This document shows positions 3,691-47,825 of a stretch of DNA of 64,000 bases, in pieces. The translations under genes were made by a program, and so were the position numbers. The notes under the pieces were generated by a model. That model did not search any database, was not told the DNA's origin, and was given only the letters and a program-made list of their open reading frames with translations. Numbering within the stretch: the stretch's first letter is position 1; every line of letters starts with the position of its first letter. Source of the DNA: an uncultured Anaerolineaceae bacterium (GTDB taxonomy: Bacteria; Chloroflexota; Dehalococcoidia; Tepidiformales; Tepidiformaceae); assembly GCA_964508715.1 (NCBI GenBank), contig CAZDUX010000011.1, positions 1 to 64,000 of the forward strand, given 5' to 3'.

Positions 3691-6600
3691 GTGTTGGTCC
3701 TGCCCAGTGAACTGGTCGGGTTGACCGCGGCTACGGCGGATGTGATTGAGCCCCTCCTGAGAGCCGGGAAGGGTGAACTGCGCCTTGGCGTACCGGAGAC
3801 GGCGAAGGCGCCGGTCGCGGCGGCCATCGCTGCACGGAACGATTGTCCAACGTTATTGCTCGTGCCGACGCCAGCCCGAGCGCAGGCCATCCATGATGAG
3901 ATCGCGCTGTTCCTGCAGGATGTGCCGCTGGCCAGGCTACCAGAACGTGAGGGGCTGCCATACGAGTTCGCGCGCGACGACGTGGTGGTATCGCTCGACC
4001 GGGCCCGGGCCCTGGCATTTCTGCGTGGCGATGAGCGCGCACTCGTCGTGGCGTCGTGGGCGTCGATATCGGAGCACTGTGCCGGGCCGGATGTCCAGGC
4101 GGCGGGCATCGAGTTCGCAACGGGAGATACGATCGACCCCGGAAGCCTCGTGGCACGGCTCGAGGAAGCGGGGTACGAGGTAACCTCGCTCGTCGAGCGG
4201 CCGGGTGCGGTGGCGCGGCGTGGGGGGCTCGTCGATGTGTTCCCGGCGGGGGCCGAACATCCCGTGCGAATTGAGTTCTTCGGGAACCAGGTCGAGAGTA
4301 TCCGGCAGGTGAACCTTTCGACGCAGCGAAGCGTGGGGCGGCTGCAGCGGGTGAACCTGCCGCCGGCAGCAACGGGCACACACGAAGCGCGTGAGGCAGC
4401 CCGGCAGTTGCTCGAACGGGCAGAGGGCACCGGAGAGCACGCGGAGCTCGTGCTCGAACAGCTCGAGTTGCTTGCAGGCGGGCAGCGAAGCGGCTACCAG
4501 GGGTTCTTCGAGCCGCTGCTGTATGAGTCGACTGCGCTGGACCACCTGAACCCGGGAGCCGTGGTCCTGCTCGACGATGACGAAGAGGGTGCACAGCACC
4601 TCGAACGGGCCATAGAGCATGAGGCGCGGTCGCGTGAAGAGCTCGAACGGCGGGAGGCGATCCCATGGGGCCTGCCAGAGCTGCGCGAGCCGGCTGAGAC
4701 TGTGACGGCGAAGCTGAGCGCCGGGCGGCGCCCGATCCGGCTGCAACGATTCGGGAGCGAGGAACTTGGTGCGAAGCGGCTGCCGTTGCAGGTGACGCCG
4801 AGCTTTGCGGGGAAGCTGAAGCCGCTGGCGCAGCAGTCGGCTCGCTGGGCACGGGATGGGCGGTCAGTCGTGATCGCGTCCCAGCAGGCGTTGCGGCTTG
4901 CGGAACTGCTCGACGAGGAAGGGATTGGCGCGCAGCTCAAACGGCAGCTGCCGGAGCGGCCGGAAGACGGGACGATCACGCTCTTGCCGCTCGCTGTGAC
5001 CGGCGGTTTCACGCTCGATGAACGGCTGGTACTCATCACTGACGCCGAGGTTTTCGGCTTTCGGAAGCGGCGGCGGCCGAGCCGGGGGCGGGCGGCGATC
5101 CGTCCCGATCTCGTTTCGGACCTGGAGGTGGGGGACTACCTGGTACACGCCGACCATGGCATCGCGCGCTACGGCGGGCTCATCCGGCGCAGCGTCGAAG
5201 GGGTGGAACGCGAGTACCTCGAACTCCAATACGCGGACTCGGACCGGCTCTACGTTCCGGCCGACCAGCTCGACGCTGTCTCGCGGTATGTGGGGCCAAC
5301 GGACCATCCACCGAGCCTGACCAAGCTGGGATCGATGGACTGGTCGCGGGCGAAGCGGCGGGTGAAGCAGGCGGTCGTGGAGATGGCGCAGGAACTCCTC
5401 GAGCTCTACGCGCAGCGGGAGCTGGCCAGGGGCCATGCATTCGCCGAGGACGGCCCGTGGCAGATGGAGATGGAGGCGGCATTTCCATTCGTGGAGACGC
5501 CGGACCAGTTACAGGCGATCGCGGAAGTGAAATCGGACATGGAGCGTGAGCGGCCGATGGATCGGCTCATCTGTGGCGACGTGGGCTATGGAAAGACCGA
5601 GGTGGCGATCCGCGGGGCGTTCAAGGCGGTGGCCGACGGGAAGCAGGTTGCGGTGCTCGTGCCAACGACCGTGCTCGCCGAGCAACATGGGTCGACCTTC
5701 CGGGAGCGGGTAGCGGGCTTCCCGGTGCACGTGGAGGTGCTCTCGCGGTTCCGGAGCGACGAGGAGCAGAAAGCGATCGTGGCAGGGATCGCGAAGGGCG
5801 AGATCGACATCGCGATCGGGACGCACCGGCTCCTCGGAAAGGATGTCGTCTTCAAGGACCTCGGGCTGGTGGTGATCGACGAGGAGCAGCGCTTCGGTGT
5901 GAGCCACAAGGAGCGGCTGAAGCAGATGCGGGCGGAAGTTGACGTGCTGACGCTCTCGGCGACACCGATACCGCGGACGCTACAGATGTCGCTCGTGGGG
6001 ATTCGCGACATGAGCACCGTGATGTCTCCACCTGAGGAGCGGCTGCCGATCCGGACGTATGTGTTGCAGTGGGACAACGAGATCATCCGGGAGGCGATCG
6101 ACCGCGAGATGGAGCGCGGCGGCCAGGTGTATTTCGTCCACAACCGGGTGCACAACATCGAGCGGATCGTGAGCCGGCTGCGGGAGATCGTCCCGGATGC
6201 ACGCATTTCGATCGGGCACGGGCAGATGCCGGAGGAGCAGCTCGAGCGGGTGATGACGGAGTTCCAGGCGGGCGACTATGACGTGCTCGTGTGCACGACG
6301 ATCATCGAAAGCGGGCTCGACATCCCAAACGCGAACACGATCATCATCAACGACGCCGACCGGCTGGGGCTGGCGCAGCTCTACCAGCTTAGAGGGCGCG
6401 TGGGGCGCGGTGGAAACCGCGCCTACTCGTACCTGTTGTACGACAAGGACAGGACGATGACCGAGCACGCGCAGAAGCGGCTCGAAGCGATCTTCGAAGC
6501 GTCGGAGCTCGGGGCGGGCTTCCAGATTGCACTCCGCGACCTGGAGATTCGTGGTGCGGGGAACGTGCTAGGCAACGAGCAGAGCGGGCACATCGCCGCC

Positions 6601-7125
6601 GTCGGGTTCGACATGTATTCGAAGCTCGTGGCGGAAGCAGTCGATGCGTTGAAGCAGACACTCGCTCCGGAAGCGCCGCGAGGGCCTGCGCCACTTCCGG
6701 CGGCGCCATCGGTGGACCTGCCGCTCAGTGCGCACATCCCGGAGACCTACATCGACGAGATACACGCTCGGTTGGCGGTCTACCAGCGCGTGGCAGATAT
6801 CGAGAGCGCCGAGGGTGTGGCCGAAATGCAGGCGGAATTACGCGATCGTTTCGGCGAGGTGCCACGATCGGTCGAGAACCTGCTCTACGTGGCGCTGGTG
6901 AAGAGCATCGCGCGGCGGGCCCGGGTTGAAGCGATCAAGACGGACGAGCAGATGTTCCACCTGCACGTGCGAGGGGGGACGACACCGAAGCTGCGCGCCG
7001 CCGTTGAAGCGTTGGGATTGAAGACGGTGCTGGTTGGGCCGAACCAGGTGCGCATCAACCGGGTTGGCGTGGGGACGAACTGGATGCCGCTGCTGGTGAA
7101 GGTGTTGCGGGCGATGACCCCGTAG
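3691..7125 (+). CDS. mfd: transcription-repair coupling factor Mfd
   Basis: 1144 aa; UvrB-homology N-terminus, CarD/TRCF RNAP-interacting domain (DLEVGDYLVHADHGIARYGG), superfamily 2 helicase motifs (GDVGYGKTEVA, DEEQRFG, SATPIPRT), TRG motif and C-terminal D7. Confidence 0.92.
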   Translation: MLVLPSELVGLTAATADVIEPLLRAGKGELRLGVPETAKAPVAAAIAARNDCPTLLLVPTPARAQAIHDEIALFLQDVPLARLPEREGLPYEFARDDVVVSLDRARALAFLRGDERALVVASWASISEHCAGPDVQAAGIEFATGDTIDPGSLVARLEEAGYEVTSLVERPGAVARRGGLVDVFPAGAEHPVRIEFFGNQVESIRQVNLSTQRSVGRLQRVNLPPAATGTHEAREAARQLLERAEGTGEHAELVLEQLELLAGGQRSGYQGFFEPLLYESTALDHLNPGAVVLLDDDEEGAQHLERAIEHEARSREELERREAIPWGLPELREPAETVTAKLSAGRRPIRLQRFGSEELGAKRLPLQVTPSFAGKLKPLAQQSARWARDGRSVVIASQQALRLAELLDEEGIGAQLKRQLPERPEDGTITLLPLAVTGGFTLDERLVLITDAEVFGFRKRRRPSRGRAAIRPDLVSDLEVGDYLVHADHGIARYGGLIRRSVEGVEREYLELQYADSDRLYVPADQLDAVSRYVGPTDHPPSLTKLGSMDWSRAKRRVKQAVVEMAQELLELYAQRELARGHAFAEDGPWQMEMEAAFPFVETPDQLQAIAEVKSDMERERPMDRLICGDVGYGKTEVAIRGAFKAVADGKQVAVLVPTTVLAEQHGSTFRERVAGFPVHVEVLSRFRSDEEQKAIVAGIAKGEIDIAIGTHRLLGKDVVFKDLGLVVIDEEQRFGVSHKERLKQMRAEVDVLTLSATPIPRTLQMSLVGIRDMSTVMSPPEERLPIRTYVLQWDNEIIREAIDREMERGGQVYFVHNRVHNIERIVSRLREIVPDARISIGHGQMPEEQLERVMTEFQAGDYDVLVCTTIIESGLDIPNANTIIINDADRLGLAQLYQLRGRVGRGGNRAYSYLLYDKDRTMTEHAQKRLEAIFEASELGAGFQIALRDLEIRGAGNVLGNEQSGHIAAVGFDMYSKLVAEAVDALKQTLAPEAPRGPAPLPAAPSVDLPLSAHIPETYIDEIHARLAVYQRVADIESAEGVAEMQAELRDRFGEVPRSVENLLYVALVKSIARRARVEAIKTDEQMFHLHVRGGTTPKLRAAVEALGLKTVLVGPNQVRINRVGVGTNWMPLLVKVLRAMTP

Positions 7126-30178: not shown

Positions 30179-30715
30179 GTGGTGGCAGAGTCCCGCCGTG
30201 CTACGTGGAGTGGAAGGTTGGCAACGTCGTTCCGGCGCCTGGAAGATAGCGAACTGGATGAGGCGCACGCGATCGTTGCTGCCGCGACCGAGTGGCTGAA
30301 CAACCGGGGAATCGTGCAGTGGACGCGCGTGATGCCGCGCGAGATGTACATGGAGCGCCAGGAGCGGGGCGAGAATTATGGGCTGTTCGAGCCCGGCCTC
30401 TCGGCGGTGATGACGCTCAAGGAGCAGGCACCCGAGTACTGGCGAGACCGGGAATACGAAAAACCGTTCCTCTGGCTCTCAACACTCGCCTCACGGCGTG
30501 ACGTGCCGGGCTCGGGCGGGCGCGCCCTCGAGGCGGCCGTGGACTTCACGGCACGTTCGGGGTTCGCCAGCCTCTACCTCGACTGCGTGGATCGGGACGA
30601 TGCGCTGCCATCGTTCTACCGGCGTGCCGGGTTCGAGCAGCTGGAGCGGCGCGAGGTCTGGCCAGGCTGGCCGATGTGCCTCTTCGTGAAGCGGTTTGAC
30701 GGAGAGCAGGCCTAA
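30179..30715 (+). CDS. GNAT family N-acetyltransferase
   Basis: 178 aa; acetyltransferase fold pattern (VPGSGGRALEAAVDFTARSGFASLYLDCV..FYRRAGF); start uncertain. Confidence 0.65.
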   Translation: MVAESRRATWSGRLATSFRRLEDSELDEAHAIVAAATEWLNNRGIVQWTRVMPREMYMERQERGENYGLFEPGLSAVMTLKEQAPEYWRDREYEKPFLWLSTLASRRDVPGSGGRALEAAVDFTARSGFASLYLDCVDRDDALPSFYRRAGFEQLERREVWPGWPMCLFVKRFDGEQA

Positions 30716-31443
30716 GATCGTGCGGCTGTGCCGGGTCTGAGCCACTCGGCGCCATGGTCCTCCGAGGTGATCCGGCCCTTTCGCATGTGGATGACGCGGT
30801 CGGCGGCGGCGGCGACATTCATATCGTGCGTCACGAGCAGGATGGTGAGCTGGCTCTCCTCGCGGATGCGGCGGAAGAGCTCGATGATGCCGAGGGCGGC
30901 CTCCGGGTCGAGGCTGCCAGTCGGTTCGTCGGCGAGGAGCAGGGTAGGGTTGTTGGCGAGCGCCCGGGCGATGGCAACGCGCTGACGTTCGCCACCGGAG
31001 AGTTCGGGTGGCCGGAGGTTGACGCGTTCGGCGAGGCCGACGCCCTCCAGGAGGCCAAGCGCGCGTTTCTTGCTCTCCTTGTTACTGACGCCGGTACCGA
31101 TCGTGGCGATCTGGACGTTCTGGAGTGCGGTGAGGTTCGGCAGGAGGTTGTGGAGCTGGAAAACGAGGCCGACTTCGAGCCGGCGGTAGCGGTCGATGCT
31201 CGGGAGGCCGGGGAGTGCCTTGCCACTGACGCGAATCTCGCCGGAGGTCGGCTCATCGAGCGCGGCGATGAGGTGGAGAAGCGTGGACTTTCCTGAGCCT
31301 GAGGGCCCGGTGAGGGCGACCCACTCACGCCGGTTGATCGCGAACGACACATCTTCGAGGGCGTGGACCTTGCCGCTCTCGTAGATCTTCGAGACGTGGC
31401 TCACTTCGACGGCCGGTTCCTGGGCTGACTGTTGATCATTCAT
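30712..31443 (-). CDS. ABC transporter ATP-binding protein (MacB/LolD/FtsE-like)
   Basis: Walker A GPSGSGKSTL, signature LSGGERQRVAIARAL, Walker B LLLADEPTGSLD. Confidence 0.88.
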   Translation of the reverse strand: MNDQQSAQEPAVEVSHVSKIYESGKVHALEDVSFAINRREWVALTGPSGSGKSTLLHLIAALDEPTSGEIRVSGKALPGLPSIDRYRRLEVGLVFQLHNLLPNLTALQNVQIATIGTGVSNKESKKRALGLLEGVGLAERVNLRPPELSGGERQRVAIARALANNPTLLLADEPTGSLDPEAALGIIELFRRIREESQLTILLVTHDMNVAAAADRVIHMRKGRITSEDHGAEWLRPGTAARS

Positions 31444-32554
31444 GGCGAATCGCCGTCAGCGGCCGAAGCATCGCTGCCCGCAATGCGGGGTAGAGCGCCC
31501 CGAAGGCGGCCATGCCGAAGGTGATGAGCAGGGCACGAAGGAACACGTCGTTGCTGTACACCGGATTGAAGAGTCCCTCCAGCGAGGGCGCACGCTCGAG
31601 TATCTGGATGAGGATGAACCCCAGCCCAATACCGGCCATGCACCCGGACATGGTAACGATAAACGCCTCGCCCAGGACATCGGCGACGATTCGGACGCGA
31701 GACCAGCCGATGGCCCGGAGGACGCCGAACTCGCGCGTCCGCTCGAAGACGGAGAGGCTCATCATGTTGAGGACGGTGACCGCGCCAATGATGAGGGCGA
31801 GTGCCGAAACCCCGGTGTTCGCCGCGCCGAGCAGTTCGAGGTTGCGGTCGACGTGGCCGAAGTCGGTCTCGGAGCGGACGGTGGCGAGTTGGGGCTCGGC
31901 CTTCTCGATCGCCTTCCGAACGGATTCAATATCGTAGCCCTGGGCGACTTTGACGAAGCCAACAGTAATACTGCTCGGCTTCCGCTGAGTGGCCTGGAGG
32001 TGCCGGAGGGGCACCATGGCGGCAGAGTCGCCGAACACCTCGCCGGTCTGGTAGATACCAACGACGGTGTAGTCATTCTTGTCGAGGTGAACGGTGTCGC
32101 CGACCGTCTTGCCGAGGTCGCGGGCGGCCTGGTAGCCGAGCATCGCCTGGTTATCGGCGGCGTCGTCATACGTCTTGCCGACCACGAGGTGGACGCCAAA
32201 CGGCTCCTGGTCGGCGGACTTCATCCCGATGATGAGAAAGAATGGATGCTGTTCATCGAGCTTGAAGCCGGCGACGAGGACACCGATTGAGCTCTCGACA
32301 CCGGGGATCTTGCGGACGGTATCGAGATCGTTCTCATCGATGTTGCTGTAGAGCACATCAGTAGCATTACGCTGGGCAATTGTAAAGTCGGAGCTGCCTG
32401 CCCGAAGAATCGCGACGGCGCTCTCGCGCAGGCTGTGGGTGAGCACACCCATTGCGACGACAGTCATGATGGTGACAGCGATCGCCATGGCGGTGAGCAC
32501 GGAGCGAAATTTCCGGGTATGGACGTTACGCCAGACCAGCAGCGTGAAACTCAC
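31436..32554 (-). CDS. ABC transporter permease, FtsX/MacB-like (4 TM with periplasmic domain)
   Basis: C-terminal FtsX domain (MSLSVFERTREFGVLRAIGWSR...); start refined to GTG preceded by AAGGGAGAGG RBS. Confidence 0.75.
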   Translation of the reverse strand: MSFTLLVWRNVHTRKFRSVLTAMAIAVTIMTVVAMGVLTHSLRESAVAILRAGSSDFTIAQRNATDVLYSNIDENDLDTVRKIPGVESSIGVLVAGFKLDEQHPFFLIIGMKSADQEPFGVHLVVGKTYDDAADNQAMLGYQAARDLGKTVGDTVHLDKNDYTVVGIYQTGEVFGDSAAMVPLRHLQATQRKPSSITVGFVKVAQGYDIESVRKAIEKAEPQLATVRSETDFGHVDRNLELLGAANTGVSALALIIGAVTVLNMMSLSVFERTREFGVLRAIGWSRVRIVADVLGEAFIVTMSGCMAGIGLGFILIQILERAPSLEGLFNPVYSNDVFLRALLITFGMAAFGALYPALRAAMLRPLTAIRHE

Positions 32555-32744
32555 GGCCTCTCCCTTCAGCGGCCAAGCGGCAGCAGCGACTGTTCGGGCG
32601 TAGCATGATTCGGTGCAGGGCGCGCGGCAAGCCCCGCTGGAGACCCCGATTGGCGTTCGATCGGCCCTCGCCGAGGTTGCGATAAATTCGTCACAATACA
32701 CGGTGGCCGAAACGGCCCTGCGGATTCGCACGGGAGAGACGACG

Positions 32745-33290
32745 ATGACGAGATTTGGAACCAGGCATGTGCTCTTCGGCCTTCTTGCTGCCGCGCTCGG
32801 CGGGACCACCCTGGTGGCGGCCGCATGCGGTGGCGGCGACGACCTGGGTGATATCAAGGCGACAGCGACTGCGGCGGCGAAGAATGCACCATCGCCCACA
32901 GCAACCCCGGATCCGGTGCCTGCTTACCGGCAAGCAGCGGACCAGAAGGCGGGTGAACTGGCGACAGCCGTGAAGAAGATCCAGGACGACATGATTGCGG
33001 CATCGACGACCCAGGCCGACCCGAAATGGCCATCGGTGCTCACGGCCGATGCCGACGCAATCACCCAGAAGGCCAACGAGCTCATCGCACTCAAGGCGCC
33101 GAACGCCGACTACCAGCCAGTCGCCGACCAGATGACGACCGCGGCGACAAAGCTCTCCACCGGTGCAGACCTGATGAAGCAGGCAGTGACGAAGCTCTCG
33201 CAGGATTTCGGCATCCAGGGCGCGGCCGCGCTTGACGAGGGTATGAAGCAGCTCGCTACCGCCCGCGAGACACTGGCGAACAAGAAGTAG
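32745..33290 (+). CDS. hypothetical lipoprotein (helical, Ala/Lys-rich)
   Basis: Signal peptide plus lipobox LVAAACGGGDD; start refined to MTRFGTRHV. Confidence 0.5.
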   Translation: MTRFGTRHVLFGLLAAALGGTTLVAAACGGGDDLGDIKATATAAAKNAPSPTATPDPVPAYRQAADQKAGELATAVKKIQDDMIAASTTQADPKWPSVLTADADAITQKANELIALKAPNADYQPVADQMTTAATKLSTGADLMKQAVTKLSQDFGIQGAAALDEGMKQLATARETLANKK

Positions 33291-37064: not shown

Positions 37065-37859
37065 ATGGAAATGACGCAGGTGCAGGATCGGGTGAATGTC
37101 CGCGAGGGCGTGGTTTTCGGGACGGGCGGGGGCAGGGAACTCCGTTGCGACATCTTCGAGCCACCAACCGCCGTTGCGAACGGGATCGGGGTGCTGCTCG
37201 TACACGGCGGTGGCTGGAGTGGCGGCGACCGATCGCAGCTGCGCGGATACGGCATTCTTCTCGGGCGGCGCGGCTACTTCTGTGTCGCGAGTGAGTACCG
37301 GCTGACGGGCGAGGCGCTCTGGCCAGCGCAGATCGAGGACGTGAAGGCGGCGATTCGCTACCTGCGCGCAAATGCGGCCGAGTTCGGGATTGATCCCGGG
37401 AAGCTGGTGATCGAAGGGAACTCGGCGGGCGGCCACCTGTCGCTGGTGGCGGCGGGAACAGCGGACGTGCCAGGGTTCGAAGGCAGCGGCGGGAATGCGG
37501 GGGTGAGCACGGAGGTTGCTGCAGCGATCGCCTTCTACCCGCCGACCGGGCTCGAACGGCGGAGCTGGGGCGGGCTCCCGAGTCTCTTTGGCCCGGGCGC
37601 ATCGCAGGAGACACTCAAGACGGCGAGCCCGCTGACGTACGCAACGAAGGGATATCCTCCCACGCTGCTCATCCAGGGGAACGCCGACGACGTGGTTCCC
37701 GCCCGGGAGGCGACGGCGATGTACGACGCGCTCCACGCGGCGGGTGTGCCGGTGGAGATGCACATGTACGCGAACCAGCCGCACGCTTTCGATGCCGACC
37801 CAAAGCTCGGGCGGCAGTGTGCAGAGATCATGGCCTCGTTCATCGAGCGCATGCTCTGA
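37065..37859 (+). CDS. alpha/beta hydrolase (esterase/lipase, fold-3 type)
   Basis: HGGGW oxyanion motif, GNSAGG nucleophile elbow, C-terminal His region. Confidence 0.82.
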   Translation: MEMTQVQDRVNVREGVVFGTGGGRELRCDIFEPPTAVANGIGVLLVHGGGWSGGDRSQLRGYGILLGRRGYFCVASEYRLTGEALWPAQIEDVKAAIRYLRANAAEFGIDPGKLVIEGNSAGGHLSLVAAGTADVPGFEGSGGNAGVSTEVAAAIAFYPPTGLERRSWGGLPSLFGPGASQETLKTASPLTYATKGYPPTLLIQGNADDVVPAREATAMYDALHAAGVPVEMHMYANQPHAFDADPKLGRQCAEIMASFIERML

Positions 37860-38459: not shown

Positions 38460-39182
38460 ATGGCCACGATCGAGCCGATCACTTCGCGGCGGGCTTGGAG
38501 CGACCGGTTGTCGTGGATGGTGCCCGTGGTTCTGCTTGGGGCCGCATTGGCCCTGCTCACCGGAATCGTGGTGGTTTCGCAACGAGTGGGGAGGGAATCC
38601 CAGCGGCCCGATGCACCGCCATTTTCGCCACCGGCGGCGTTTCCCACGAACTACCAGCGGCTCGTGGTGCGGCAGGTTACGGGTTCTGCGATCACGCTGG
38701 GGAGTGATTCATCGAGCGGGCGCCCGGAATCGAAGGCGACGACGTTCGACGCGTCGGCCGGCGCTGTGATCGAGGTCATCTCGCCAGCGACGGCCGCCAG
38801 CCTACAGCCGGGCGAGTGGATGAGCGTGATCGGGATCACGAACAGCGTGCGCAACTTCACCATCCACCAGATCGTCGTGCTGCCAGCGGGGAGCAACGCA
38901 GACGCGGACGGTGTGGCGCGGAGTGCAGCAGGATTTGGCGGATACGAGGCCGCGACAGACGAAAACGACCGCGTCGCGTTTGGGGGCACAATCGCCAAGG
39001 CCGATGGCAACACGGTGACGCTCGATGGCCCGGAGGGGCCGATCACGGTGCAGCTTTCAGACCGGGCACCGCTCTTCCGTCTCGCGGCGGCAACCGCGGC
39101 CGACATCCGCGAGGGGTTCGGGGCGGCAGCGATTCTCGATGCAAGCGGCGGGATGCGGGCGATCCTCTTCCAGCCGCGCTGA
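38460..39182 (+). CDS. hypothetical membrane-anchored protein
   Basis: N-terminal signal-anchor (WMVPVVLLGAALALLTGIVVV); no recognisable domain. Confidence 0.45.
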   Translation: MATIEPITSRRAWSDRLSWMVPVVLLGAALALLTGIVVVSQRVGRESQRPDAPPFSPPAAFPTNYQRLVVRQVTGSAITLGSDSSSGRPESKATTFDASAGAVIEVISPATAASLQPGEWMSVIGITNSVRNFTIHQIVVLPAGSNADADGVARSAAGFGGYEAATDENDRVAFGGTIAKADGNTVTLDGPEGPITVQLSDRAPLFRLAAATAADIREGFGAAAILDASGGMRAILFQPR

Positions 39183-39186
39183 GGTG

Positions 39187-42100
39187 CTACTCGGTACGAA
39201 GGGCTTGAGCTCCCGCCTGGGCGGAGACGGCGCGTGTTGCAGCAACGAGCCCGATGACCACGACCGCAAGCACCGCCGCAATCGCACCACCCACGATGAG
39301 CCACTCCGTCTGGAGGATGAAGCCGGGCTCAACCTTCGCACCCGTTTCGGTGACGTCGAGGAAGGAGAGCATCTGGCGGCCAACGATCACGCCGAGGATT
39401 GCACCAGCGAGTGTGCCCGCGATGGAGACGACGGCGTATTCGAGCGCAAGCATGCGGAAGACCTGGGTGCGTGAGACACCCATCGCGCGCACGACGGCAA
39501 ACTCGACGCGCCGGCGGTTGATGGAGGTGACGAGCGAGACGAGCAACCCCGCGGCGACGAGGGCAAGCACAGCCGCGAAGCTCACGAAGAGGATGCCGCT
39601 GCCCGCCGCGGCGATGAGCGGGTTTTTCAGGTTATCGTTGAGGTCCTCGCTACGGCTCACGAGATGTGGAAGGCCGTATGCCGTGTCATCGAACGCCTCG
39701 ATGATCTGCTTCGAGACGGCCGCCTCGTCGGCGCCGGGCGCGAGTGAAATGAACGCCTCGGTGGGCACGAGGTCGTTTGGATCGGAAAAGCCGGTTGTAT
39801 CGCCCCACGTGGTGAGCTGGTCGCGATTGAAGATGACCGCGGGCCCATCCTTCGTCGCGAGCGTGGGAAAGAGGTCGAACGACGCGACGACACGGATGGG
39901 GACGAGCGTTCCACGGCCAACGACAAGCGTCGTGGTGCCGCCGGGCCGGAGGCCGGTAGAAGCAAGGAACGTCCGGCTGGCGAGGACAGACAGCGGGACG
40001 ATCTGGGGAGTGGTGTACATGCCGCGTGTCTCGCCCGTGTTCCCGGCGCCGAAGGTGAACGTGGCAGCGGCCTTGCCGCCGTGCGGCGCATCGGTTGCAG
40101 CGGCGAGGGTGTCCGGCTTTTGCGCCCGCGAGGGGAACGGTGACCAGCGCATGCCCGTCTCGAAGTCCTCCACCACCACGGCCGATCCATCGGCGAGGGT
40201 TGCGCCGATATCGTCGACGAAGAGCGGCGGATAGTTCGCCAGCGGCCGGTTGGGCGGCAACGTGAAGATGATGGACACGAGGCTCACCGGCTCGGGCCGC
40301 GGTCCGCCAAGGTCGGAGGCAATAGGTGCCGTGCGCCGGGACCAGGCGCCGCCGGTATCAGCGGTGCCGAGTTGAACCGTAAACAGGCGGCCGCTACCGT
40401 CGCGCAGGTGAGCCCAGATACCAATCTCGGAGAGCGCCGAATCGCCCTTGAACCAGACGCTTAGCTGGTTGGTGCCCTGGGGAAGGATGGCGCCCGGGAT
40501 CGCGACGGGAGCAGAGAGGCGGGCGAGGAGGTCGCCGAGTGGCTCGAAGGCGAAGTCGCTACGCCAGTAGATGATGTTCGAGAGCGCCGCAGGGTCGGCG
40601 GCGAGGACCTGGAACGAGCGGCTGACGACCCCTGGAACCGCAACCCCCGCCGTCGTGCGGGTGATGGCCGTCGCGCCGCTCACACCGGGGATGGCTTTCA
40701 GCTTCTTCTCGGTCTCCGGTGGTTCGGGGAGGGTGCGCCCGCCGGGAGCGAGGAGGCGGAGGTCGGCGCCGGTATCGAAGCCGGAGCGGTCACGGTAGGA
40801 GGCATCGGTTGTCTTTGCGTAGCTCGCGGCGAAGCTGCCGACGGCGACGGCCATCATCACGAGGAGGGTGAGACGCGTGTACTGGGCGGAGTTCCGTACG
40901 ACCTGCACCAGGCCGAGGGAGACGCTCGCGCCGGCGGCGGCATCAACACCCTTCGCAATCATCCGGAGGAAGATGGGGTAGAAGCGGAGGACGAGGGCGG
41001 CGGCGGCAGCCATTACCAGCGCGGGCGAGGCGAGGAGTAGCGGGTCGCTGCTGAGGCCGGCGGTAGAGGACGGTTCGTAGACAGAGCCGCGTTGGCGAAG
41101 TTCGAAGAGGGCAACGCCGGCTGCTGCAGCAAGAGCAAGGTCGAGGTAGTAGCGATGGATGACCGACCGGCCGGGGCGCGATTCGGAGCGGCGGGTGCTC
41201 ACCACCCCTCTCCGCGCGACGACGACGGCGGGGATGACGAGCGCCGCGAGTGAGAGGCCAACACCGGCAGCCGCCGCGGCAAACGACATCGGTGGGATGA
41301 TGACGGGGATGAGGCTGCCACCGCTCACATCGCGAAAAACCGGCGTCAGGCCGAGGATGGCAGTAGAACCGGCGGCGAGGAAGGGTGCGAGGATGGCGGC
41401 CGGTAGACCGATGATGAGCCCCTGCCAGAGGTAGATGATGGCGACCTGCATGACGCTCGCGCCACGGCCCCGGAGGAGGGCGATATCGGCAGCCTGCTGC
41501 TCGACGACGATCGCCGACACGATACCGACGTAGAAGAGGGCGATACCGGTGATCTCGAGGAGGAGCACGGTCAGCGGGACCTCGGCGTAGTCTGCATTCG
41601 TGCCGTAGCGCTGGAGCGTATCGCGCAGGGGGCTGAACGCGGTGCCGTTCATCGGTTCGACATCCTTGCCGAGGGCTTCGATGTCACTCCGGGCGATGGT
41701 GAAGTTGTTGCGATTGAGCTTCTCGGGGTTGGCATCGACCCACCAGGAGACGGATGCGTGATAGCCCGGGAACGCGGCGCCGAAGTTGCCGGTCAGGGTG
41801 CGCTCATCGGTGAACGCAGGAAGGATGGGGCCGACGTCGGGGATGTCGAGGCGAAACGGCGAAAAGTAGAGTTCTGCCGGACGCCCCCAGAAGGGGTCCG
41901 CCGGGTCGGCCGGTTCGATGATGCCAACGATGACCGCAGGGATACTGAAGCTCGCATTTGCTGTGGGGTCGCAGGGGGGCGGCGGGGGCGGCGGTTCGCT
42001 GGTGGGAAGGATACGGACACAGGTGTCGAAGGACTCACGGAGTTCGAGGGGCTCGCCGACCTTGAACCGAGAGGCAGCGGCAGACTGCGTGCTGATCGCG

Positions 42101-42567
42101 AGCTGAATTGGATCGCCTTTGGCAGACGGCTGCGGAAGCTGCCCCTGGACAATACGGACGTGTGCGCTGTAGCCCGTGAGTGACTGCGGTCGTGCCTGGA
42201 AGAGGCCCGTCGTCGCCGTGTCGCCCGGGCGGGCAAGGCCGAAGCGGCCGAGCTGGATGTAGCGTGACTGGGCGGCGCGGAACCAGCCGATGCGTTCGTT
42301 GATACGCTGCTCAACCGCCTGGCGAACTGCCTGCCCGGCCTCGGTCTGGAGGGGCACATCGTTGAGGATGACCTGGGTCCCGGCCCCCTGGTGGAGTTCA
42401 CGCCGCACTTTGAAGGTGAGGCCAAGGTCGGCCATTGCGCGCGAATAGATGGGTGCACTGGCGAGGAGGGTGGCCGCCACGAAGACGCCCAGGGCGACGA
42501 CCGCGAGGAGCCCGCGGATCGCAAGGCTCCGGCGAAAGGCCAGGCGCATGGTGCTGAAAGCGCTCAT
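39187..42567 (-). CDS. giant ABC transporter permease, FtsX family (two FtsX modules, about 10 TM, two large extracytoplasmic domains)
   Basis: 1126 aa; FtsX-type C-terminal TM bundles in each half; paralogous to 42666..46043; weak or no SD at start. Confidence 0.8.
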   Translation of the reverse strand: MSAFSTMRLAFRRSLAIRGLLAVVALGVFVAATLLASAPIYSRAMADLGLTFKVRRELHQGAGTQVILNDVPLQTEAGQAVRQAVEQRINERIGWFRAAQSRYIQLGRFGLARPGDTATTGLFQARPQSLTGYSAHVRIVQGQLPQPSAKGDPIQLAISTQSAAASRFKVGEPLELRESFDTCVRILPTSEPPPPPPPCDPTANASFSIPAVIVGIIEPADPADPFWGRPAELYFSPFRLDIPDVGPILPAFTDERTLTGNFGAAFPGYHASVSWWVDANPEKLNRNNFTIARSDIEALGKDVEPMNGTAFSPLRDTLQRYGTNADYAEVPLTVLLLEITGIALFYVGIVSAIVVEQQAADIALLRGRGASVMQVAIIYLWQGLIIGLPAAILAPFLAAGSTAILGLTPVFRDVSGGSLIPVIIPPMSFAAAAAGVGLSLAALVIPAVVVARRGVVSTRRSESRPGRSVIHRYYLDLALAAAAGVALFELRQRGSVYEPSSTAGLSSDPLLLASPALVMAAAAALVLRFYPIFLRMIAKGVDAAAGASVSLGLVQVVRNSAQYTRLTLLVMMAVAVGSFAASYAKTTDASYRDRSGFDTGADLRLLAPGGRTLPEPPETEKKLKAIPGVSGATAITRTTAGVAVPGVVSRSFQVLAADPAALSNIIYWRSDFAFEPLGDLLARLSAPVAIPGAILPQGTNQLSVWFKGDSALSEIGIWAHLRDGSGRLFTVQLGTADTGGAWSRRTAPIASDLGGPRPEPVSLVSIIFTLPPNRPLANYPPLFVDDIGATLADGSAVVVEDFETGMRWSPFPSRAQKPDTLAAATDAPHGGKAAATFTFGAGNTGETRGMYTTPQIVPLSVLASRTFLASTGLRPGGTTTLVVGRGTLVPIRVVASFDLFPTLATKDGPAVIFNRDQLTTWGDTTGFSDPNDLVPTEAFISLAPGADEAAVSKQIIEAFDDTAYGLPHLVSRSEDLNDNLKNPLIAAAGSGILFVSFAAVLALVAAGLLVSLVTSINRRRVEFAVVRAMGVSRTQVFRMLALEYAVVSIAGTLAGAILGVIVGRQMLSFLDVTETGAKVEPGFILQTEWLIVGGAIAAVLAVVVIGLVAATRAVSAQAGAQALRTE

Positions 42568-42665
42568 TCGGAGGCAATCTACAGCCCTGCACGGGAGGCG
42601 GCGAATGGGAAGGGCTTTCCGGGTTCACTGCCCGTCTGTAGGCTTTCGCCACGCGGAGGGGGCGC

Positions 42666-45600
42666 ATGGGCAGTTTCGGCGCCGTGATTCGGATGGTGGC
42701 GCGACGGAGCCTCGGGCACTGGAAGTTGCTCGTAGCCCTCGTCTCGGGGGTGGTCTTGTCGGCGGCGCTGATGTCGAGCGTCTTCCTCTATTCCGACGCA
42801 ATCCGGGATCTCGGGCTGCGCCACGCACTCGATAGCCGCACCCCGCAGGCACTCGATGTCCACGTGACTGTCTCGGGCGGCAAGGTCCAGCAAGAGGATT
42901 ACGAGGCGCGCCGGAAGACCGTCGACGCCCTCATGACGGGCTACGCCAGCGACATCATGACGGGGATCACCCACTCGGGGACGTCGAGCGGATTCTACCT
43001 CACCGCTCCTGGCGAGCCTGTTCCGAACACCGACGACCGGCCACGGTCGCTGTTCGCGTTCCAGGAAGGGCTGATGGACCACGCGAAACTGGTCGAAGGC
43101 GTGATGCCCCCCGAGCCTTCGCCGGGAGTCCCCGGTCAACCGCTTGAAGTCCAGGTGCTGATGGGGAAGGACGCTGCCAAGTCTCTCGGGGTGAAGGTGG
43201 GGCAGGCGTTCGACGTACACTGGCCGATCCGCGAAACGGCACCCATTCGAGTTGTCGTCGCCGGCCTGGTGCAGCCGAACGACATGGGTGAACCGTTCTG
43301 GGCGGGGCACGGCGACCGTTTCCGGCCGAATACGCCCAGTTGGCCGACGTACGCCTTCTTCATGGACGAAGCAGCGCTGGTGAAGAGCGCCGGCGGGTTC
43401 CTCCCGGATATGGACATCTCCGTCGAGACCCTCGGGGCCGTCGACGCGAAGCGGATCGTCAGCGGCAACTCCGATGCAGTGGAGGGGCGCCTCAACGCTC
43501 TCGACTTAGCGCTGAAGCAGCAGGTGCCATTTTCGCGCGTCGAGACGGAGATCCCGGCCGTGATAAAGAACTACCGGGAGAAGCTCTTCTTCACACGGCT
43601 GCCGCTCTTCGCCCTGATGATCCAGGTCGTCGGTATCGTGCTCTTCTACGTGGCGATGGTGGGGAGCATGGTCGTCGACCGGCAGACCGGCGAGATTGCG
43701 CTCTTGAAGAGCCGCGGGGCGAGTAACCGGCAGGTGCTGGGTGTGTTCGCCATCGAGGGGCTTGGCATCGGCATCCTCGCAACCGTTACCGGGCCCATTA
43801 TCGCCATCGCGGCGATCTCGGTGCTCGGGCTCACGCCACCGTTTCACGACCTCAGTGGTGGCGCGCTGCTCCACGTGCCGCTCTCGGGAGGGGCGATCGC
43901 GCTCGCGGGCCTCGGGGCGTTCCTCGCGTTTCTCGCGCTGATCTGGCCGGCGTACCGGGCTTGCCGCTACAGCATCACGCAGTACAAGCAGGAGATCTCG
44001 CGCCCGCCGGTTCAACCGGCGTTCTTCCGCTACCACCTCGACGTCGTCGTCGCGGCGGCTGGCGCGTTCGCCTTCTACCAGCTTCGCCAGAACGACTCAT
44101 TCGCGACGAAGGACCTGTTCGGGGACCTCTCGTTCGACCCCATCCGGCTGGCCACGCCGTCGCTTCTCATCCTGCTCGTGGCGATGGTCTTCTTGCGGCT
44201 GTTTCCACTCGTTCTCGGGGTCGTCTCGTGGGCATCGAAGCCGCTTCCGGGCCCAACCGTTTCGTTCGGGCTCCTGCGAATGGTCCGCAGCCCCGTGCAG
44301 CACAGCCGGCTTATCCTGTTACTGATCCTGACGACGGCCGTGGGGGTTTTTGCAGCGGGATTCCGGGCGACGCTGGAGCAGGGCTACCGGGACCGCGCGG
44401 ACTACCGGGCCGGCGCTGCCGTGCGCATCCAGGATATCCGGCTGCCAGGTCCGACACCGGTCGGACCGTTCAACGACCTCATCGCGAAGGTCACCGGGTC
44501 GCGCGATTTCACGGCCGCAGCGCGCCAGAACGCGTTCGCAAGCCTCGACCGCTTCCAGTCGGAGAGCCTGAACGTTCTTGGCGTAGAGCCGGATGCGTTC
44601 GCCCGGATCGCGGACTGGCGGGGCGACTTCGCCGGGGATTCGCTCGCCGGCCTGCTTTCGCGGTTACCGCGCAAGCCGCAGGAACTCGCCCAGACACCGG
44701 CGATTCCCGGCAACGCGAAGTTCATCGGCGTCTGGGCGAACCTGCCGATCGGGCCGAACGCAGCGAGCCTCGGCATCCGGCTGCGCAACGCGGACGGAAT
44801 TACGTGGGACTACCGGTTGACGCCGGCGGGCACGGCAGTGGCGAACGCGTGGACCTTCTACTACGCCGATCTTTCGAAACCCGTGACGAGCCGCCCGGCC
44901 GAACTCGCGCTGAGTGAACGGCGTATCGACACGATATTCGTCCGCCTCACCTCGCAGCAGCCGCTCATCCCGGAGACCGACACGGCGCTCTTTGACGATC
45001 TCCAGACGACGACGGAAGCGGCAGCCAGCCCTGCGTGGAACGGGAAAGGATTCGTATCGCCGACGGTGGCCGATTCGTTCGACGATATGACCGCGTATGA
45101 ACTGGTGACCGGCGTTTCAACCCTGGGGAACCCGGGCCAGATCACGAGGGGGACAGCGACGAACGGCCGGACAGGAACCGTCGCGAGGCTGACCTTCACA
45201 CGGGGGCCCGGGAGCACGAATGTCGTGGGCTTCCGGCGCCAGACCGACCAGCGCCCTGTACCCGTGGTGGTGGACCAGCAGTTCCTCGACGTCGCAAAGA
45301 AAAAGGTTGGCGACGAGCAACTCGTGTTCGTGAACAACCAGTACGTGAATATGACGATCGTTGGCGCCTACGACCTCTTCCCGACGTATGACCCGCAGGG
45401 CAAGCAGCACCTCTTCATTGCCGACCTGGCGGCACTCCAGGCGAGCGCGAGCCGCACGCCAACCGGCGATACGATCTTCCCGAACGAGGCGTGGCTCAAC
45501 GACAATCCGGGGGGGCTGACGAAGCAGAGCCTGCTCGACAAGGGTGTGAATGCGCAGGAGGTGGCCGACCGCGACGCGATCTTCGCAGCCCAATCGGCCG

Positions 45601-46043
45601 ACCCGCTGGTCGCGGCAAGCTGGCAGGGCATCCTGTTCCTGTGCTTCGCGGCCGTGTTGTTGCTCAGCGGGCTCGGGTTCATCACGCATTCGGGGTTGAG
45701 TGCGCAGGCACGGTCGATGGAGTTCGCCATTCTCCGGACGATGGGGATGTCGGGGCGGCAGATTGTCGGGGTGGTGTCGTTCGAGCAGGTATTCGTGATT
45801 GTCGCCGGGCTTGCGGCGGGGACGATCCTGGGGTTCCCGCTCAGCCGGTTGATGATCGACTCGATGGGCATCACGGAGAGCGGGGTGGCTCCGGTGCCGC
45901 CACTCGTCTCACGGATCGGCTGGGACGCAGTGGTCACGGTCTATTCGCTGCTTGGCATGCTCGTTGGTGCGACGATTGTGGCGCTTTTCCTGCTCTATTC
46001 GCGGATAGGCGTAAGCAAGACACTGAGGATGGGCGAGCTGTGA
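42666..46043 (+). CDS. giant ABC transporter permease, FtsX family (paralog of 39187..42567)
   Basis: 1125 aa; strong SD GGAGGGGG; similar N-terminus (M..RRSL...LL..L...V.....L.S...YS.A..DLGL); followed by two ATPase genes. Confidence 0.82.
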   Translation: MGSFGAVIRMVARRSLGHWKLLVALVSGVVLSAALMSSVFLYSDAIRDLGLRHALDSRTPQALDVHVTVSGGKVQQEDYEARRKTVDALMTGYASDIMTGITHSGTSSGFYLTAPGEPVPNTDDRPRSLFAFQEGLMDHAKLVEGVMPPEPSPGVPGQPLEVQVLMGKDAAKSLGVKVGQAFDVHWPIRETAPIRVVVAGLVQPNDMGEPFWAGHGDRFRPNTPSWPTYAFFMDEAALVKSAGGFLPDMDISVETLGAVDAKRIVSGNSDAVEGRLNALDLALKQQVPFSRVETEIPAVIKNYREKLFFTRLPLFALMIQVVGIVLFYVAMVGSMVVDRQTGEIALLKSRGASNRQVLGVFAIEGLGIGILATVTGPIIAIAAISVLGLTPPFHDLSGGALLHVPLSGGAIALAGLGAFLAFLALIWPAYRACRYSITQYKQEISRPPVQPAFFRYHLDVVVAAAGAFAFYQLRQNDSFATKDLFGDLSFDPIRLATPSLLILLVAMVFLRLFPLVLGVVSWASKPLPGPTVSFGLLRMVRSPVQHSRLILLLILTTAVGVFAAGFRATLEQGYRDRADYRAGAAVRIQDIRLPGPTPVGPFNDLIAKVTGSRDFTAAARQNAFASLDRFQSESLNVLGVEPDAFARIADWRGDFAGDSLAGLLSRLPRKPQELAQTPAIPGNAKFIGVWANLPIGPNAASLGIRLRNADGITWDYRLTPAGTAVANAWTFYYADLSKPVTSRPAELALSERRIDTIFVRLTSQQPLIPETDTALFDDLQTTTEAAASPAWNGKGFVSPTVADSFDDMTAYELVTGVSTLGNPGQITRGTATNGRTGTVARLTFTRGPGSTNVVGFRRQTDQRPVPVVVDQQFLDVAKKKVGDEQLVFVNNQYVNMTIVGAYDLFPTYDPQGKQHLFIADLAALQASASRTPTGDTIFPNEAWLNDNPGGLTKQSLLDKGVNAQEVADRDAIFAAQSADPLVAASWQGILFLCFAAVLLLSGLGFITHSGLSAQARSMEFAILRTMGMSGRQIVGVVSFEQVFVIVAGLAAGTILGFPLSRLMIDSMGITESGVAPVPPLVSRIGWDAVVTVYSLLGMLVGATIVALFLLYSRIGVSKTLRMGEL

Positions 46044-46047
46044 TAGG

Positions 46048-47001
46048 ATGCGGCACCATCACTTGCCGATCCCCGCTTGGAGCGCCTGTGCGCGCTGGAG
46101 CAGCGCTGTGACCCCGGAATCCGAAGTACCGCACATCCAGTGCGAGGACCTCTTCAAGATCTACAAGATCGCCAACCTCGAAGTCGTTGCCCTGCGCGGG
46201 CTCGACCTGAAGGTGCCGCATGGCGAAATCATGGGGATCGTCGGCTCATCGGGATCGGGGAAGAGCACCCTGCTCAACATCCTGGCGGGCCTCGACAAGC
46301 CATCGGCCGGGCGGGCGTTCGTGAACGGGAATGACCTCGTGACGCTCTCCGAGGCAGAGATGGTGGACTACCGGCGCAAGCAGGTCGGCTTTGTGTGGCA
46401 GCAGACGGGCCGGAATCTCATTCCGTATCTCGACGCACTCCAGAACGTGGAGGTGCCGCTCATCCTCGGCGGGGCATCGAAGAAGATGGCCCGTGAACGG
46501 GCGCGCGAGCTGCTCGATGCCGTGGGGCTGAGCGACCGGCTCAACCACCTGCCGAACGAACTCTCGGGTGGGCAGCAGCAGCGGGTCTCGATTGCCGTAG
46601 CGCTCGCGAACAACCCGCCCCTCCTGCTCGCGGACGAGCCCACCGGCGAACTCGACTCGATCGGGGCGACGATGATCTTCGCGCTCTTCGACGATCTCAA
46701 TCGCCGCTACGGGATAACCATCGTCATCGTGACCCACGACCCGGACATCGCCGAGCGCGTGGACCGCGTGGTCGCGATTCGCGACGGGCGCACGAGCACA
46801 GAGACCATTCGCACGCTCGGCCCGGATCCCAACCGGCTGGAGATGACGCACGATGAGTACGTGCTCATCGACTCGGCGGGGCGCCTCCAGATCCCCCGGG
46901 CCTACCTGGACGGGTTGAAGATCACCGAACGGGCCAGGGTGCTTCTTGGCGAGGGGCGGGTTGAGGTGCTGCCCGACCGTGATGAAAGGAGCCGGCGCTG
47001 A
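46048..47001 (+). CDS. ABC transporter ATP-binding protein (MacB/LolD-like) with C-terminal extension
   Basis: Walker A GSSGSGKSTL, signature LSGGQQQRVSIAVAL, Walker B LLLADEPTGELD; possible alternative GTG start at 46108. Confidence 0.88.
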   Translation: MRHHHLPIPAWSACARWSSAVTPESEVPHIQCEDLFKIYKIANLEVVALRGLDLKVPHGEIMGIVGSSGSGKSTLLNILAGLDKPSAGRAFVNGNDLVTLSEAEMVDYRRKQVGFVWQQTGRNLIPYLDALQNVEVPLILGGASKKMARERARELLDAVGLSDRLNHLPNELSGGQQQRVSIAVALANNPPLLLADEPTGELDSIGATMIFALFDDLNRRYGITIVIVTHDPDIAERVDRVVAIRDGRTSTETIRTLGPDPNRLEMTHDEYVLIDSAGRLQIPRAYLDGLKITERARVLLGEGRVEVLPDRDERSRR

Positions 47002-47024
47002 GCGGGGCATCGGTCAGAGCCGAG

Positions 47025-47825
47025 ATGGTGTCGCGGCGTTTCGAACGCGGTGCTGACGAGGTCTGGGCCCTCCGTGACGTTTCGATCTCGGTGAACGCGG
47101 GAGAGGTGATGGCACTCGTGGGGCGCTCGGGGTCGGGGAAGACGACGCTGCTCAATATCCTCGCCGGGCTCGACAAGCCAACGGCCGGGGAGGTGTTCAT
47201 CGATGGCGAACGCATCGACACGATGTCGGAACGCCAGATGACCGAGTTGCGGCGTCGAAAGCTGGGCTTTGTGTTCCAGTCGTTCGGCCTGTTGCCGCTG
47301 CTTTCGGCCCAGGAGAATGTGGAGCTACCAGCGCGGATCGCGGGGTTTGGGCACGGGGAACGTGTCCAGCGAGCGAAGCGTGCGCTCGAGCTCGTCGGGC
47401 TGACGAAGCGGGCACAGCACCGGCCGTACGAGCTTTCGGGTGGTGAGCAGCAACGCGTCGCGATCGCACGTGCGCTCACGTGTGAGCCAGCGCTCATCCT
47501 CGCCGATGAGCCAACCGGGGAACTCGATTCACTGACGGCAAAGGCGGTTTTTGCACTCCTGCGCGACCTGGCTCGCAGCGAGGGGATCACGGTTATCACC
47601 TGCACCCATGACCGCCAGGTGATGGAGATGGCCGACCGCGTGGAGGAGCTCGCCGATGGCCGCATCGTCAAGGGCCACGAGCGCGAAGTCTGGGAGTATG
47701 TGCAGGCGAAGGAGCACCATGTTCCCGAACCGGCCGGGGCGTCGCATCACTGGCCAAAGGGAGAATCAACCCCCGAAGACGAGTCTCCTCCGGCCGAACG
47801 GGCCCAACGGCCATGGGACTGGTGA
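47025..47825 (+). CDS. ABC transporter ATP-binding protein (MacB/LolD-like), second ATPase
   Basis: Walker A GRSGSGKTTL, signature LSGGEQQRVAIARAL, Walker B LILADEPTGELD; C-terminal acidic tail. Confidence 0.88.
   Translation: MVSRRFERGADEVWALRDVSISVNAGEVMALVGRSGSGKTTLLNILAGLDKPTAGEVFIDGERIDTMSERQMTELRRRKLGFVFQSFGLLPLLSAQENVELPARIAGFGHGERVQRAKRALELVGLTKRAQHRPYELSGGEQQRVAIARALTCEPALILADEPTGELDSLTAKAVFALLRDLARSEGITVITCTHDRQVMEMADRVEELADGRIVKGHEREVWEYVQAKEHHVPEPAGASHHWPKGESTPEDESPPAERAQRPWDW

Follow-up and report, generated by a model that had tools for sequence, protein, structure and literature searches.

The DNA analyzed here is a 64,000-nt stretch from an uncultured Anaerolineaceae bacterium (Tepidiformaceae in the GTDB lineage; assembly GCA_964508715.1, contig CAZDUX010000011.1, positions 1 to 64,000 of the forward strand). 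The whole stretch is referred to below as the window, and coordinates are those of the window unless a locus code beginning with L is given. The window carries a cluster of genes coding for two large permeases of the FtsX type (A and B), two ATP-binding cassette (ABC) ATPases, and a 240-aa protein, u240:

38460..39182, plus strand: u240, 240 aa, candidate accessory partner
39187..42567, minus strand: permease A, 1126 aa, YbbP-like fused double-FtsX permease
42666..46043, plus strand: permease B, 1125 aa, YbbP-like, 10 transmembrane (TM) helices
46048..47001, plus strand: ATPase 1, 317 aa, MacB/LolD-type nucleotide-binding domain (NBD)
47025..47825, plus strand: ATPase 2, 266 aa, second, distinct MacB/LolD-type NBD

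The open reading frames (ORFs) of the permeases and ATPases lie at the positions assigned to them in a first-pass annotation, which was made from the sequence alone. That annotation was also right about the head-to-head arrangement of the permease genes; the intergenic region, which it gave as 99 bp, measures 98 bp between the start codons (42568..42665). On the plus strand, permease B is followed by ATPase 1 and then by ATPase 2. Permease A, as had been pointed out, has no ATPase of its own, and the next gene, u240, is on the other strand, convergent with permease A and separated from it by a 4-nt gap. Pfam recognizes two FtsX stretches in each permease and an ABC_tran domain in each ATPase. 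The permeases are paralogous along their entire length (29% identity, E 1e-98), and their description as paralogs with two FtsX bundles each thus stands.

An AlphaFold model of permease B, calculated with 82 homologues, had a predicted local distance difference test score (pLDDT) of 83, a predicted template modelling score (pTM) of 0.73, and 10 TM helices. Hydropathy of permease B agrees with a single-chain layout of 10 TM helices with two extracytoplasmic domains. Model and hydropathy together bear out the claim that each permease has two large domains outside the membrane. The parts of the permeases are as follows:

42834-43550, plus strand: permease B, first extracytoplasmic domain (TM1-2), ca. 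aa 57-295, from the AlphaFold model
aa 296-432, plus strand: permease B, first FtsX bundle
aa 453-523, plus strand: permease B, linker helices
44412-45602, plus strand: permease B, second extracytoplasmic domain (TM7-8), aa 583-979, from the AlphaFold model
44721..45245, plus strand: extra beta-sandwich within the second extracytoplasmic domain of permease B, ca. aa 686-860, without a YbbP counterpart
aa 980-1124, plus strand: permease B, second FtsX bundle
41575-42453, minus strand: permease A, predicted first extracytoplasmic domain, ca. aa 39-331
39595-40815, minus strand: permease A, predicted second extracytoplasmic domain, ca. aa 585-991

A Foldseek search with the permease B model returned E. 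coli YbbP as the best full-length match (9ge6_A and 9ge7_A, E 1.5e-18); the E value of the match to BceB was ~1e-9. Permease B is 12% identical to YbbP, and a family match at the level of sequence is absent. The NCBIfam lolCE model scored the permeases at 35.8 and 45.7 bits (cut-off 362), and the model for ADOP duplicated permeases (TIGR03434) at 22-26 bits (cut-off 622); membership in the ADOP and LolC/E families was ruled out by these scores, which are far under the cut-offs. A sequence search of the PDB with the extracytoplasmic domains found nothing outside the FtsX helices. The following features of Type VII ABC systems are seen here: an FtsX-type four-helix bundle, a large Porter/Sabre-like domain outside the membrane, placed between helices one and two of each bundle, a motif after the second TM helix of each bundle (a coupling helix by position), and an NBD of the MacB/LolD type. 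The module belongs to the Type VII (MacB/FtsX-type) superfamily and is closest in its working to YbbAP.

The two halves of each permease have diverged from one another. In BLAST comparisons, the N-terminal half of A matches that of B (E 1e-45) and the C-terminal half of A matches that of B (E 1e-41), and no match of an N-terminal half to a C-terminal half can be recognized. In both the A and B families, the segment following TM2 conforms to VERQxxEIALLxxRGAS and the segment following TM8 to RRxxEFAxLRxxGxS. By their position and by likeness to YbbP, these segments are predicted to be coupling helices. Each permease would then be a single-chain pseudo-dimer with two coupling helices, a layout that calls for two NBDs per permease. 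The strong asymmetry between the halves fits two different ATPase partners, and the presence of the same two half-specific docking motifs in A and B is as expected if one pair composed of ATPase 1 and ATPase 2 fits either permease.

The ATPases themselves are 52% identical to each other over the NBD. Their best NCBIfam matches are LolD and MacB, under the equivalog cut-offs (238 and 231 bits for LolD vs 308). The Walker A, Q-loop, signature, Walker B, and H-loop motifs are canonical in both proteins, and both catalytic sites therefore look canonical as far as their sequences go. Both ATPases have C-terminal extensions, conserved in kind among orthologues, and the first-pass annotation had accurately described them as two distinct MacB/LolD-like proteins with such extensions.

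Conservation of the cluster was studied by a scan of one genome per species, which gave 134 relatives; 80 loci were analyzed, including that of the isolate Tepidiforma flava YIM 72310. Presence of genes was counted by tblastn of the window proteins against these loci, and the denominators given below are informative loci. Homologues of permease B are found in Chloroflexota (Tepidiformaceae and Dehalococcoidia-labelled metagenome-assembled genomes, MAGs), with length tightly kept at ~1120-1140 aa. A divergent permease A was present in 50 of 57 loci and formed a single uninterrupted full-length match in 49 of these 50, at divergence down to 42% identity. Both ATPases were located 3' of permease B in 64 of 65 loci, and a u240 homologue lay beside permease A in 38 of 49. 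The DUF1353 and DinB_2 genes that neighbor the cluster in the window showed no conservation in related loci. An adjacent permease A is missing from at least seven of the 57 loci; in at least three of them (L024, L061, and L069), both ATPases are still found behind permease B, which counts against an assignment of one ATPase to each permease. Genomes without an adjacent permease A include complete ones such as OZ241349.1.

The same gene order in dozens of distinct genomes indicates that the arrangement is not due to chance, and since the five genes are kept and the DUF1353 and DinB_2 neighbors are not, the unit under selection is the five-gene cluster. Conservation extends over Tepidiformia and related Chloroflexota, and in Tepidiformia the cluster has the look of a conserved envelope function kept in single copy. 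The synteny check thus agrees with the view of the first-pass annotation that the permease and ATPase genes form one module. Two findings would have spoken against that view, namely, decay of permease A and ATPases belonging to transporters elsewhere. The first is contradicted by the intact permease A of 49 of 50 loci, on which basis its identification as a pseudogene was rejected, and the second by the 64 of 65 loci in which both ATPases accompany permease B.

A search with ATPase 1 revealed many proteins of ~545 aa in Anaerolineales, Ardenticatenaceae, and Promineifilaceae. These proteins are fusions that consist of an ATPase 1-like domain, the conserved tail, a linker, and an ATPase 2-like domain, in the same order in 84 of 84 cases. 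In all 84, the N-terminal half is closer to ATPase 1 than to ATPase 2 (mean identity 59.6 vs 47.5%), and the C-terminal half is closer to ATPase 2 than to ATPase 1 (52.5 vs 43.8%). Such fusions are a classical indication that the two ATPases work as parts of a single complex, and the sorting of the fused halves places the divergence of ATPase 1 from ATPase 2 before the split of the Chloroflexota classes.

The genomic context of the fused gene was examined in five genomes. In two of them, of the Anaerolineae type, the fused ATPase gene closes an operon whose first two genes encode double-FtsX permeases (1080-1094 aa and 912-940 aa) and in which genes overlap; an arrangement of two big permeases with one ATPase pair thus recurs in another class. 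Together with the fusions, these operons strongly back the earlier proposal that shared or heteromeric ATPases serve both permeases. In the other three (L086, L087, and L089; Ardenticatenaceae-like), there is no FtsX permease within 10 kb of the fused ATPase, which is divergent from a gene for a 392-396-aa lipoprotein without a family and lies near a gene for a DUF3048 protein. The 396-aa product was considered as a novel permease and rejected, being a lipoprotein with one signal-peptide helix.

A neighbor-joining tree of permeases (25 sequences, 1083 columns, 100 bootstraps; unrooted and based on simple distances) contains three groups with 100% bootstrap support: all A permeases, all B permeases, and the four Anaerolineae permeases. 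Provisionally, the permease appears to have been duplicated independently in Tepidiformia and Anaerolineae. Independent duplications of the permease, combined with an older ATPase pair, suggest, also provisionally, that the ancestral machine was one asymmetric 10-TM permease with an ATPase heterodimer.

The short region between the divergent permease genes contains the following signals:

42655..42662, plus strand: Shine-Dalgarno sequence of permease B, GGAGGGGG, 3 nt before the ATG
42576..42584, minus strand: extended -10-like box of permease A, CTGTAGATT, whose end is 8 nt from the ATG; also one arm of inverted repeat I1
42636..42644, plus strand: extended -10-like box of permease B, CTGTAGGCT, followed by a short leader with the Shine-Dalgarno sequence

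The strong Shine-Dalgarno sequence that had been noted in front of permease B is indeed present. There is no such sequence before permease A, also as described. A reading of its absence as a sign of weak or odd expression is not supported: 36 of 57 permease A orthologues have a -10-like TAnnnT box whose end lies 7-9 nt from the start codon, and conservation of the box at a leaderless distance makes the missing Shine-Dalgarno sequence a conserved design feature. Of 66 permease B orthologues, 38 have a TAnnnT box whose end is 11-15 nt from the start codon. CTGTAGATT and CTGTAGGCT are the same CTGTAGnnT-type box and together make an inverted repeat. The boxes came from the comparison of orthologues, and a simple sigma-70 scan of the intergenic region found no full promoter. 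Judged by this comparison, CTGTAGATT is the probable promoter of a leaderless permease A mRNA, which implies that leaderless mRNAs may be used in this lineage, and both arms of the cluster use the same kind of predicted promoter. In near-identical assemblies (L090 and L091), gene callers start permease A at Met7 (1120 aa); the start at Met1 (1126 aa) is favored by the alignment with permease B and by the position of the -10-like box. One Tepidiformaceae subclade, with about ten related loci, has a permease gap of 0.8-1 kb with an extra ORF; in L060 (9254-9967) this ORF codes for ~237 aa and resembles an NYN domain by eye.

The C-terminal extensions of the ATPases differ from each other in kind:

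46777..46998, plus strand: ATPase 1 C-terminal tail, ~70 aa, probable single MraZ/AbrB-like unit
aa 1-218, plus strand: ATPase 2 NBD
47679-47822, plus strand: ATPase 2 tail, aa 219-266, disordered-looking from its low-complexity sequence

The tail of ATPase 1 is near-invariant in 69 sequences (EYVLVDAAGRLQIPREFLDRLSIxERAKVLLGEGRVEVLPE). Its direct match to Pfam MraZ has an E value of 0.033, under the gathering score, and a profile of the tail matched MraZ in the PDB with an E value of 0.39; a match to the 'DTAGRL' motif of SRP54 is spurious. An exhaustive search with the tail yielded 199 relatives, some of them with two or three tandem copies. One relative with three tandem copies, P0392, was found with the tail at E 2e-4 and passes the MraZ gathering score (25.9 vs 23). 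We therefore consider the ATPase 1 tail to be a probable single MraZ/AbrB-like swapped-hairpin unit. AbrB/MraZ swapped-hairpin domains require two units to fold. P0392, P0279, P0389, and P0390 are ABC ATPases in which two or three tandem tail modules follow the NBD, and a combination of ABC and MraZ/AbrB-like domains seems to be undescribed. The tails of ATPase 2 orthologues (L005-L083) contain the conserved short motifs ERSPFAA and LSSLIGAD and, following an acidic stretch, RWARP at the C-terminus; in the window copy of ATPase 2, the tail is shortened, lacks LSSLIGAD, and ends in RPWDW.

The remaining gene of the cluster, u240, codes for a protein with one hydrophobic segment (residues 21-39), which forms an N-terminal membrane anchor, and a beta-rich extracytoplasmic part. 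No Pfam family at threshold, no PDB assignment, no match to the HlyD family, and no recognizable enzyme domain was found for u240; there are weak OB-fold hints (Ten1, DUF5666, and CusF). An AlphaFold model from four close homologues was unusable (pLDDT 38). The flanks of the cluster in the window encode no HlyD-type adaptor (membrane fusion protein), outer-membrane factor, or two-component system, and none of the related loci examined co-encodes a HlyD-type protein, a histidine kinase, or a response regulator. The statement of the first-pass annotation that the module has no adaptor thus holds for proteins of the HlyD type and overlooked the conserved, membrane-anchored u240, which, by its conserved position, may be an accessory partner of the permeases.

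Permeases of Type VII systems can be homodimeric, heterodimeric (LolCE), or fused (BceB and YbbP), with NBDs separate or fused to the membrane domain (PMC5985334). The recently solved YbbAP is the fourth E. coli Type VII system and consists of one 10-TM YbbP carrying two YbbA subunits; its coupling helices lie between TM2-3 and TM8-9, and its extracytoplasmic domains have the Porter/Sabre fold (PMC12646458). Like the YbbAP-TesA complex (PDB 9ge6/9ge7), the module has single-chain 10-TM permeases, with two linker helices connecting the two FtsX bundles, with extracytoplasmic domains at TM1-2 and TM7-8, and with two coupling helices; its MacB/LolD-type NBDs are separate. The permeases described here, however, are ~320 aa longer and have the extra beta-sandwich in the second extracytoplasmic domain. 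In addition, a conserved pair of two different ATPases, one of them with a conserved extra tail, replaces the YbbA homodimer, two paralogous permeases are present per ATPase set, and the cluster is without a tesA-like lipase gene.

Other Type VII systems resemble the module less. LolCDE shares with it two different permease units matched asymmetrically to the motor, and LolC/E and LolD are the best sequence matches of the FtsX regions and the ATPases. LolC and LolE, however, are separate 4-TM proteins on a LolD homodimer, whereas the permeases here are fused pseudo-dimers and the ATPases heteromeric. No conserved Lol-type partner gene lies beside the cluster in the loci examined, and Chloroflexota are not known to have an outer membrane to target. 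MacAB-TolC, YknXYZ, and Spr0693-0695 have the FtsX fold, a Porter/Sabre-type domain, and a MacB-type ATPase in common with the module, but they are built as homodimers of 4-TM units and operate together with a HlyD-type adaptor, for which there is no gene here; membership in the MacAB group was rejected because no HlyD-type membrane fusion protein was found in the window flanks or related loci. Heterodimeric-NBD ABC exporters use two different NBDs, and 'multitask' ATPases of importers (MsiK/MsmK) serve several permeases with one ATPase; these are other types of ABC transporters and have the concept alone in common with the module. BceAB likewise combines a 10-TM fused FtsX permease with a separate ATPase. 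BceB, however, lost the first extracytoplasmic domain and coevolved with the BceRS two-component system (PMC5985334), whereas the permeases here have both domains and no two-component system is encoded alongside them. For these reasons, and with YbbP as the best match, the sensing of envelope-targeting peptides in the manner of Bce/Yxd permeases, which the first-pass annotation had put forward, finds no support. Neither PMC5985334 and PMC12646458 nor our literature search gave heteromeric or tandem NBDs, or two fused permeases per motor, in a Type VII system, and the literature search returned no description of this module.

Taken as a whole, the results are best explained by two related Type VII ABC machines that share one motor composed of ATPase 1 and ATPase 2, an explanation towards which we lean slightly. 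Our confidence is fairly high for the YbbP-like architecture with an ATPase heterodimer, moderate for the sharing of one motor by A and B, which we infer, and low for the task. ATPase 1 and ATPase 2 would heterodimerize, with one subunit bound to the N-terminal and the other to the C-terminal half of a permease, and the same pair would drive either permease, so that the cell would contain A-ATPase1-ATPase2 and B-ATPase1-ATPase2 complexes, with the permeases acting as alternatives on a common motor. ATP-driven closure of the motor would pass through the coupling and stalk helices to the extracytoplasmic domains (mechanotransmission). The work done outside the membrane may consist of extracting or expelling a hydrophobic or envelope-linked molecule, which, by likeness to YbbAP, MacB, LolCDE, and HrtBA, would be pulled from the outer leaflet. 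Specificity of A versus B might be set by the fast-evolving second extracytoplasmic domain with its beta-sandwich, and u240 is a possible partner. Expression of both arms would be driven by two back-to-back promoters of one type, with permease A made from a leaderless mRNA. As to which ATPase binds which permease half, what the substrate is, and what u240 does, we can only infer.

Several points weigh against this explanation. Gene dosage leaves the stoichiometry unsettled. Independent permease duplications in two classes may mean that A and B are needed together and are not alternatives, and the single half-barrel of the ATPase 1 tail suggests pairing of ATPase 1, which independent complexes do not require. 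The substrate and the role are drawn wholly from distant relatives (12% identity to YbbP). The link of u240 to the module consists of conserved adjacency in convergent orientation, and the Anaerolineae operons are without u240.

The second and third of these points bear on the possibility that permeases A and B are obligate partners in one larger assembly, either as two permease-ATPase1-ATPase2 units bridged by ATPase 1 tails or with a joint A/B extracytoplasmic chamber. Two paralogous permeases per ATPase pair are retained in two Chloroflexota classes, apparently as a result of independent duplications; ATPase 1 has one swapped-hairpin unit where some relatives have two or three in tandem; and genes of the Anaerolineae operons overlap. 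We nevertheless regard such an assembly as distinctly unlikely, since at least seven of 57 loci are without an adjacent permease A, L024, L061, and L069 keep permease B with both ATPases, and the assignment of the tail is weak and the tree unrooted and built from simple distances. Known fused 10-TM permeases (YbbP and BceB), moreover, work as single chains with two NBDs (PMC12646458; PMC5985334). A more specific and improbable version would have an A unit and a B unit clamped in the cytoplasm by paired ATPase 1 half-barrels, and, as a further twist, tails that bind the CTGTAG boxes. If the former were true, 20 TM helices, four NBDs, and four extracytoplasmic domains would act jointly, and the duplication of the permease in two classes would reflect selection for a paired machine; if paired AbrB-like tails did bind the inverted CTGTAG boxes, the state of the transporter would be coupled to transcription.

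The module might, alternatively, be composed of FtsEX-like transmitters of signal or force and not of transporters, the permeases activating an enzyme or partner outside the membrane, for instance u240 or a cell-wall hydrolase. This is unlikely, if worth weighing: the best full-length match is YbbP, with the Porter/Sabre fold, and not the smaller FtsX domain, u240 has no recognizable enzyme domain and is missing from the Anaerolineae operons, and the conserved cluster contains no hydrolase gene, SGNH/TesA-like or other. Separate motors, with ATPase 1 dimers driving one permease and ATPase 2 dimers the other, would follow the rule of homodimeric NBDs in MacB, LolD, FtsE, YbbA, and BceA (PMC12646458), and a single swapped-hairpin unit could pair inside an ATPase 1 homodimer. 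Such motors are nonetheless very improbable, given that 84 of 84 fusions join an ATPase 1-like to an ATPase 2-like domain, that in two genomes such a fusion shares an operon with two permeases, that L024, L061, and L069, with no adjacent permease A, keep both ATPases, and that the asymmetric permease halves fit two different partners. It is scarcely credible that permease A is a decaying or silent duplicate, with only permease B and the ATPases functional. Permease A does lack a Shine-Dalgarno sequence, its family is less conserved than that of B (143 vs 276 columns conserved at 90% or more), and one MAG (Tepidiforma sp. KatS3mg062; L001/L040, 4560-7917) has a frameshift near codon 344. Against this, the gene is intact at full length in 49 of 50 loci, both coupling-helix motifs and the -10-like box at a leaderless distance are conserved, and the lone frameshift sits in a metagenome assembly. 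At the frameshift in KatS3mg062, the gene caller put an opposite-strand ORF, and an assembly error is possible.

The cluster is flanked in the window by genes for an esterase, a DUF1353 protein, a DinB_2 protein, and MoaA, in addition to the 240-aa ORF of u240. The esterase (37065-37859) is a BD-FAE/Abhydrolase_3 enzyme and is not kept in related loci. An ordinary MacB-like pair is located ~6 kb from the cluster, at 30712-32899 on the minus strand, and consists of a 487-aa permease (MacB_PCD and one FtsX, 31436-32899) followed by a 243-aa ABC ATPase (30712-31443). Mfd/TRCF is encoded at 3691-7125 on the plus strand. The window has a G+C content of 63-68%. Its GC skew is positive in nearly all 2-kb bins (cumulative skew up to 3.3), despite genes being present on both strands.

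The cluster is a conserved, testable oddity of ABC architecture and has no bearing on a long-standing question. Tepidiformia has cultured isolates, including Tepidiforma flava, which makes the cluster accessible to experiment. Type VII systems (MacB, LolCDE, FtsEX, BceAB, and YbbAP) do key work in the cell envelope and have so far been described with homodimeric motors. To the known arrangements the cluster would add a heterodimeric or tandem-fused motor, two fused 10-TM permeases per motor, and an extra conserved domain on one ATPase. Its study could show how these Chloroflexota handle a lipid, a lipoprotein, or an envelope polymer, and, thanks to its asymmetry, the module would be a natural setting in which to examine whether a Type VII motor uses its two ATP sites for separate functions.

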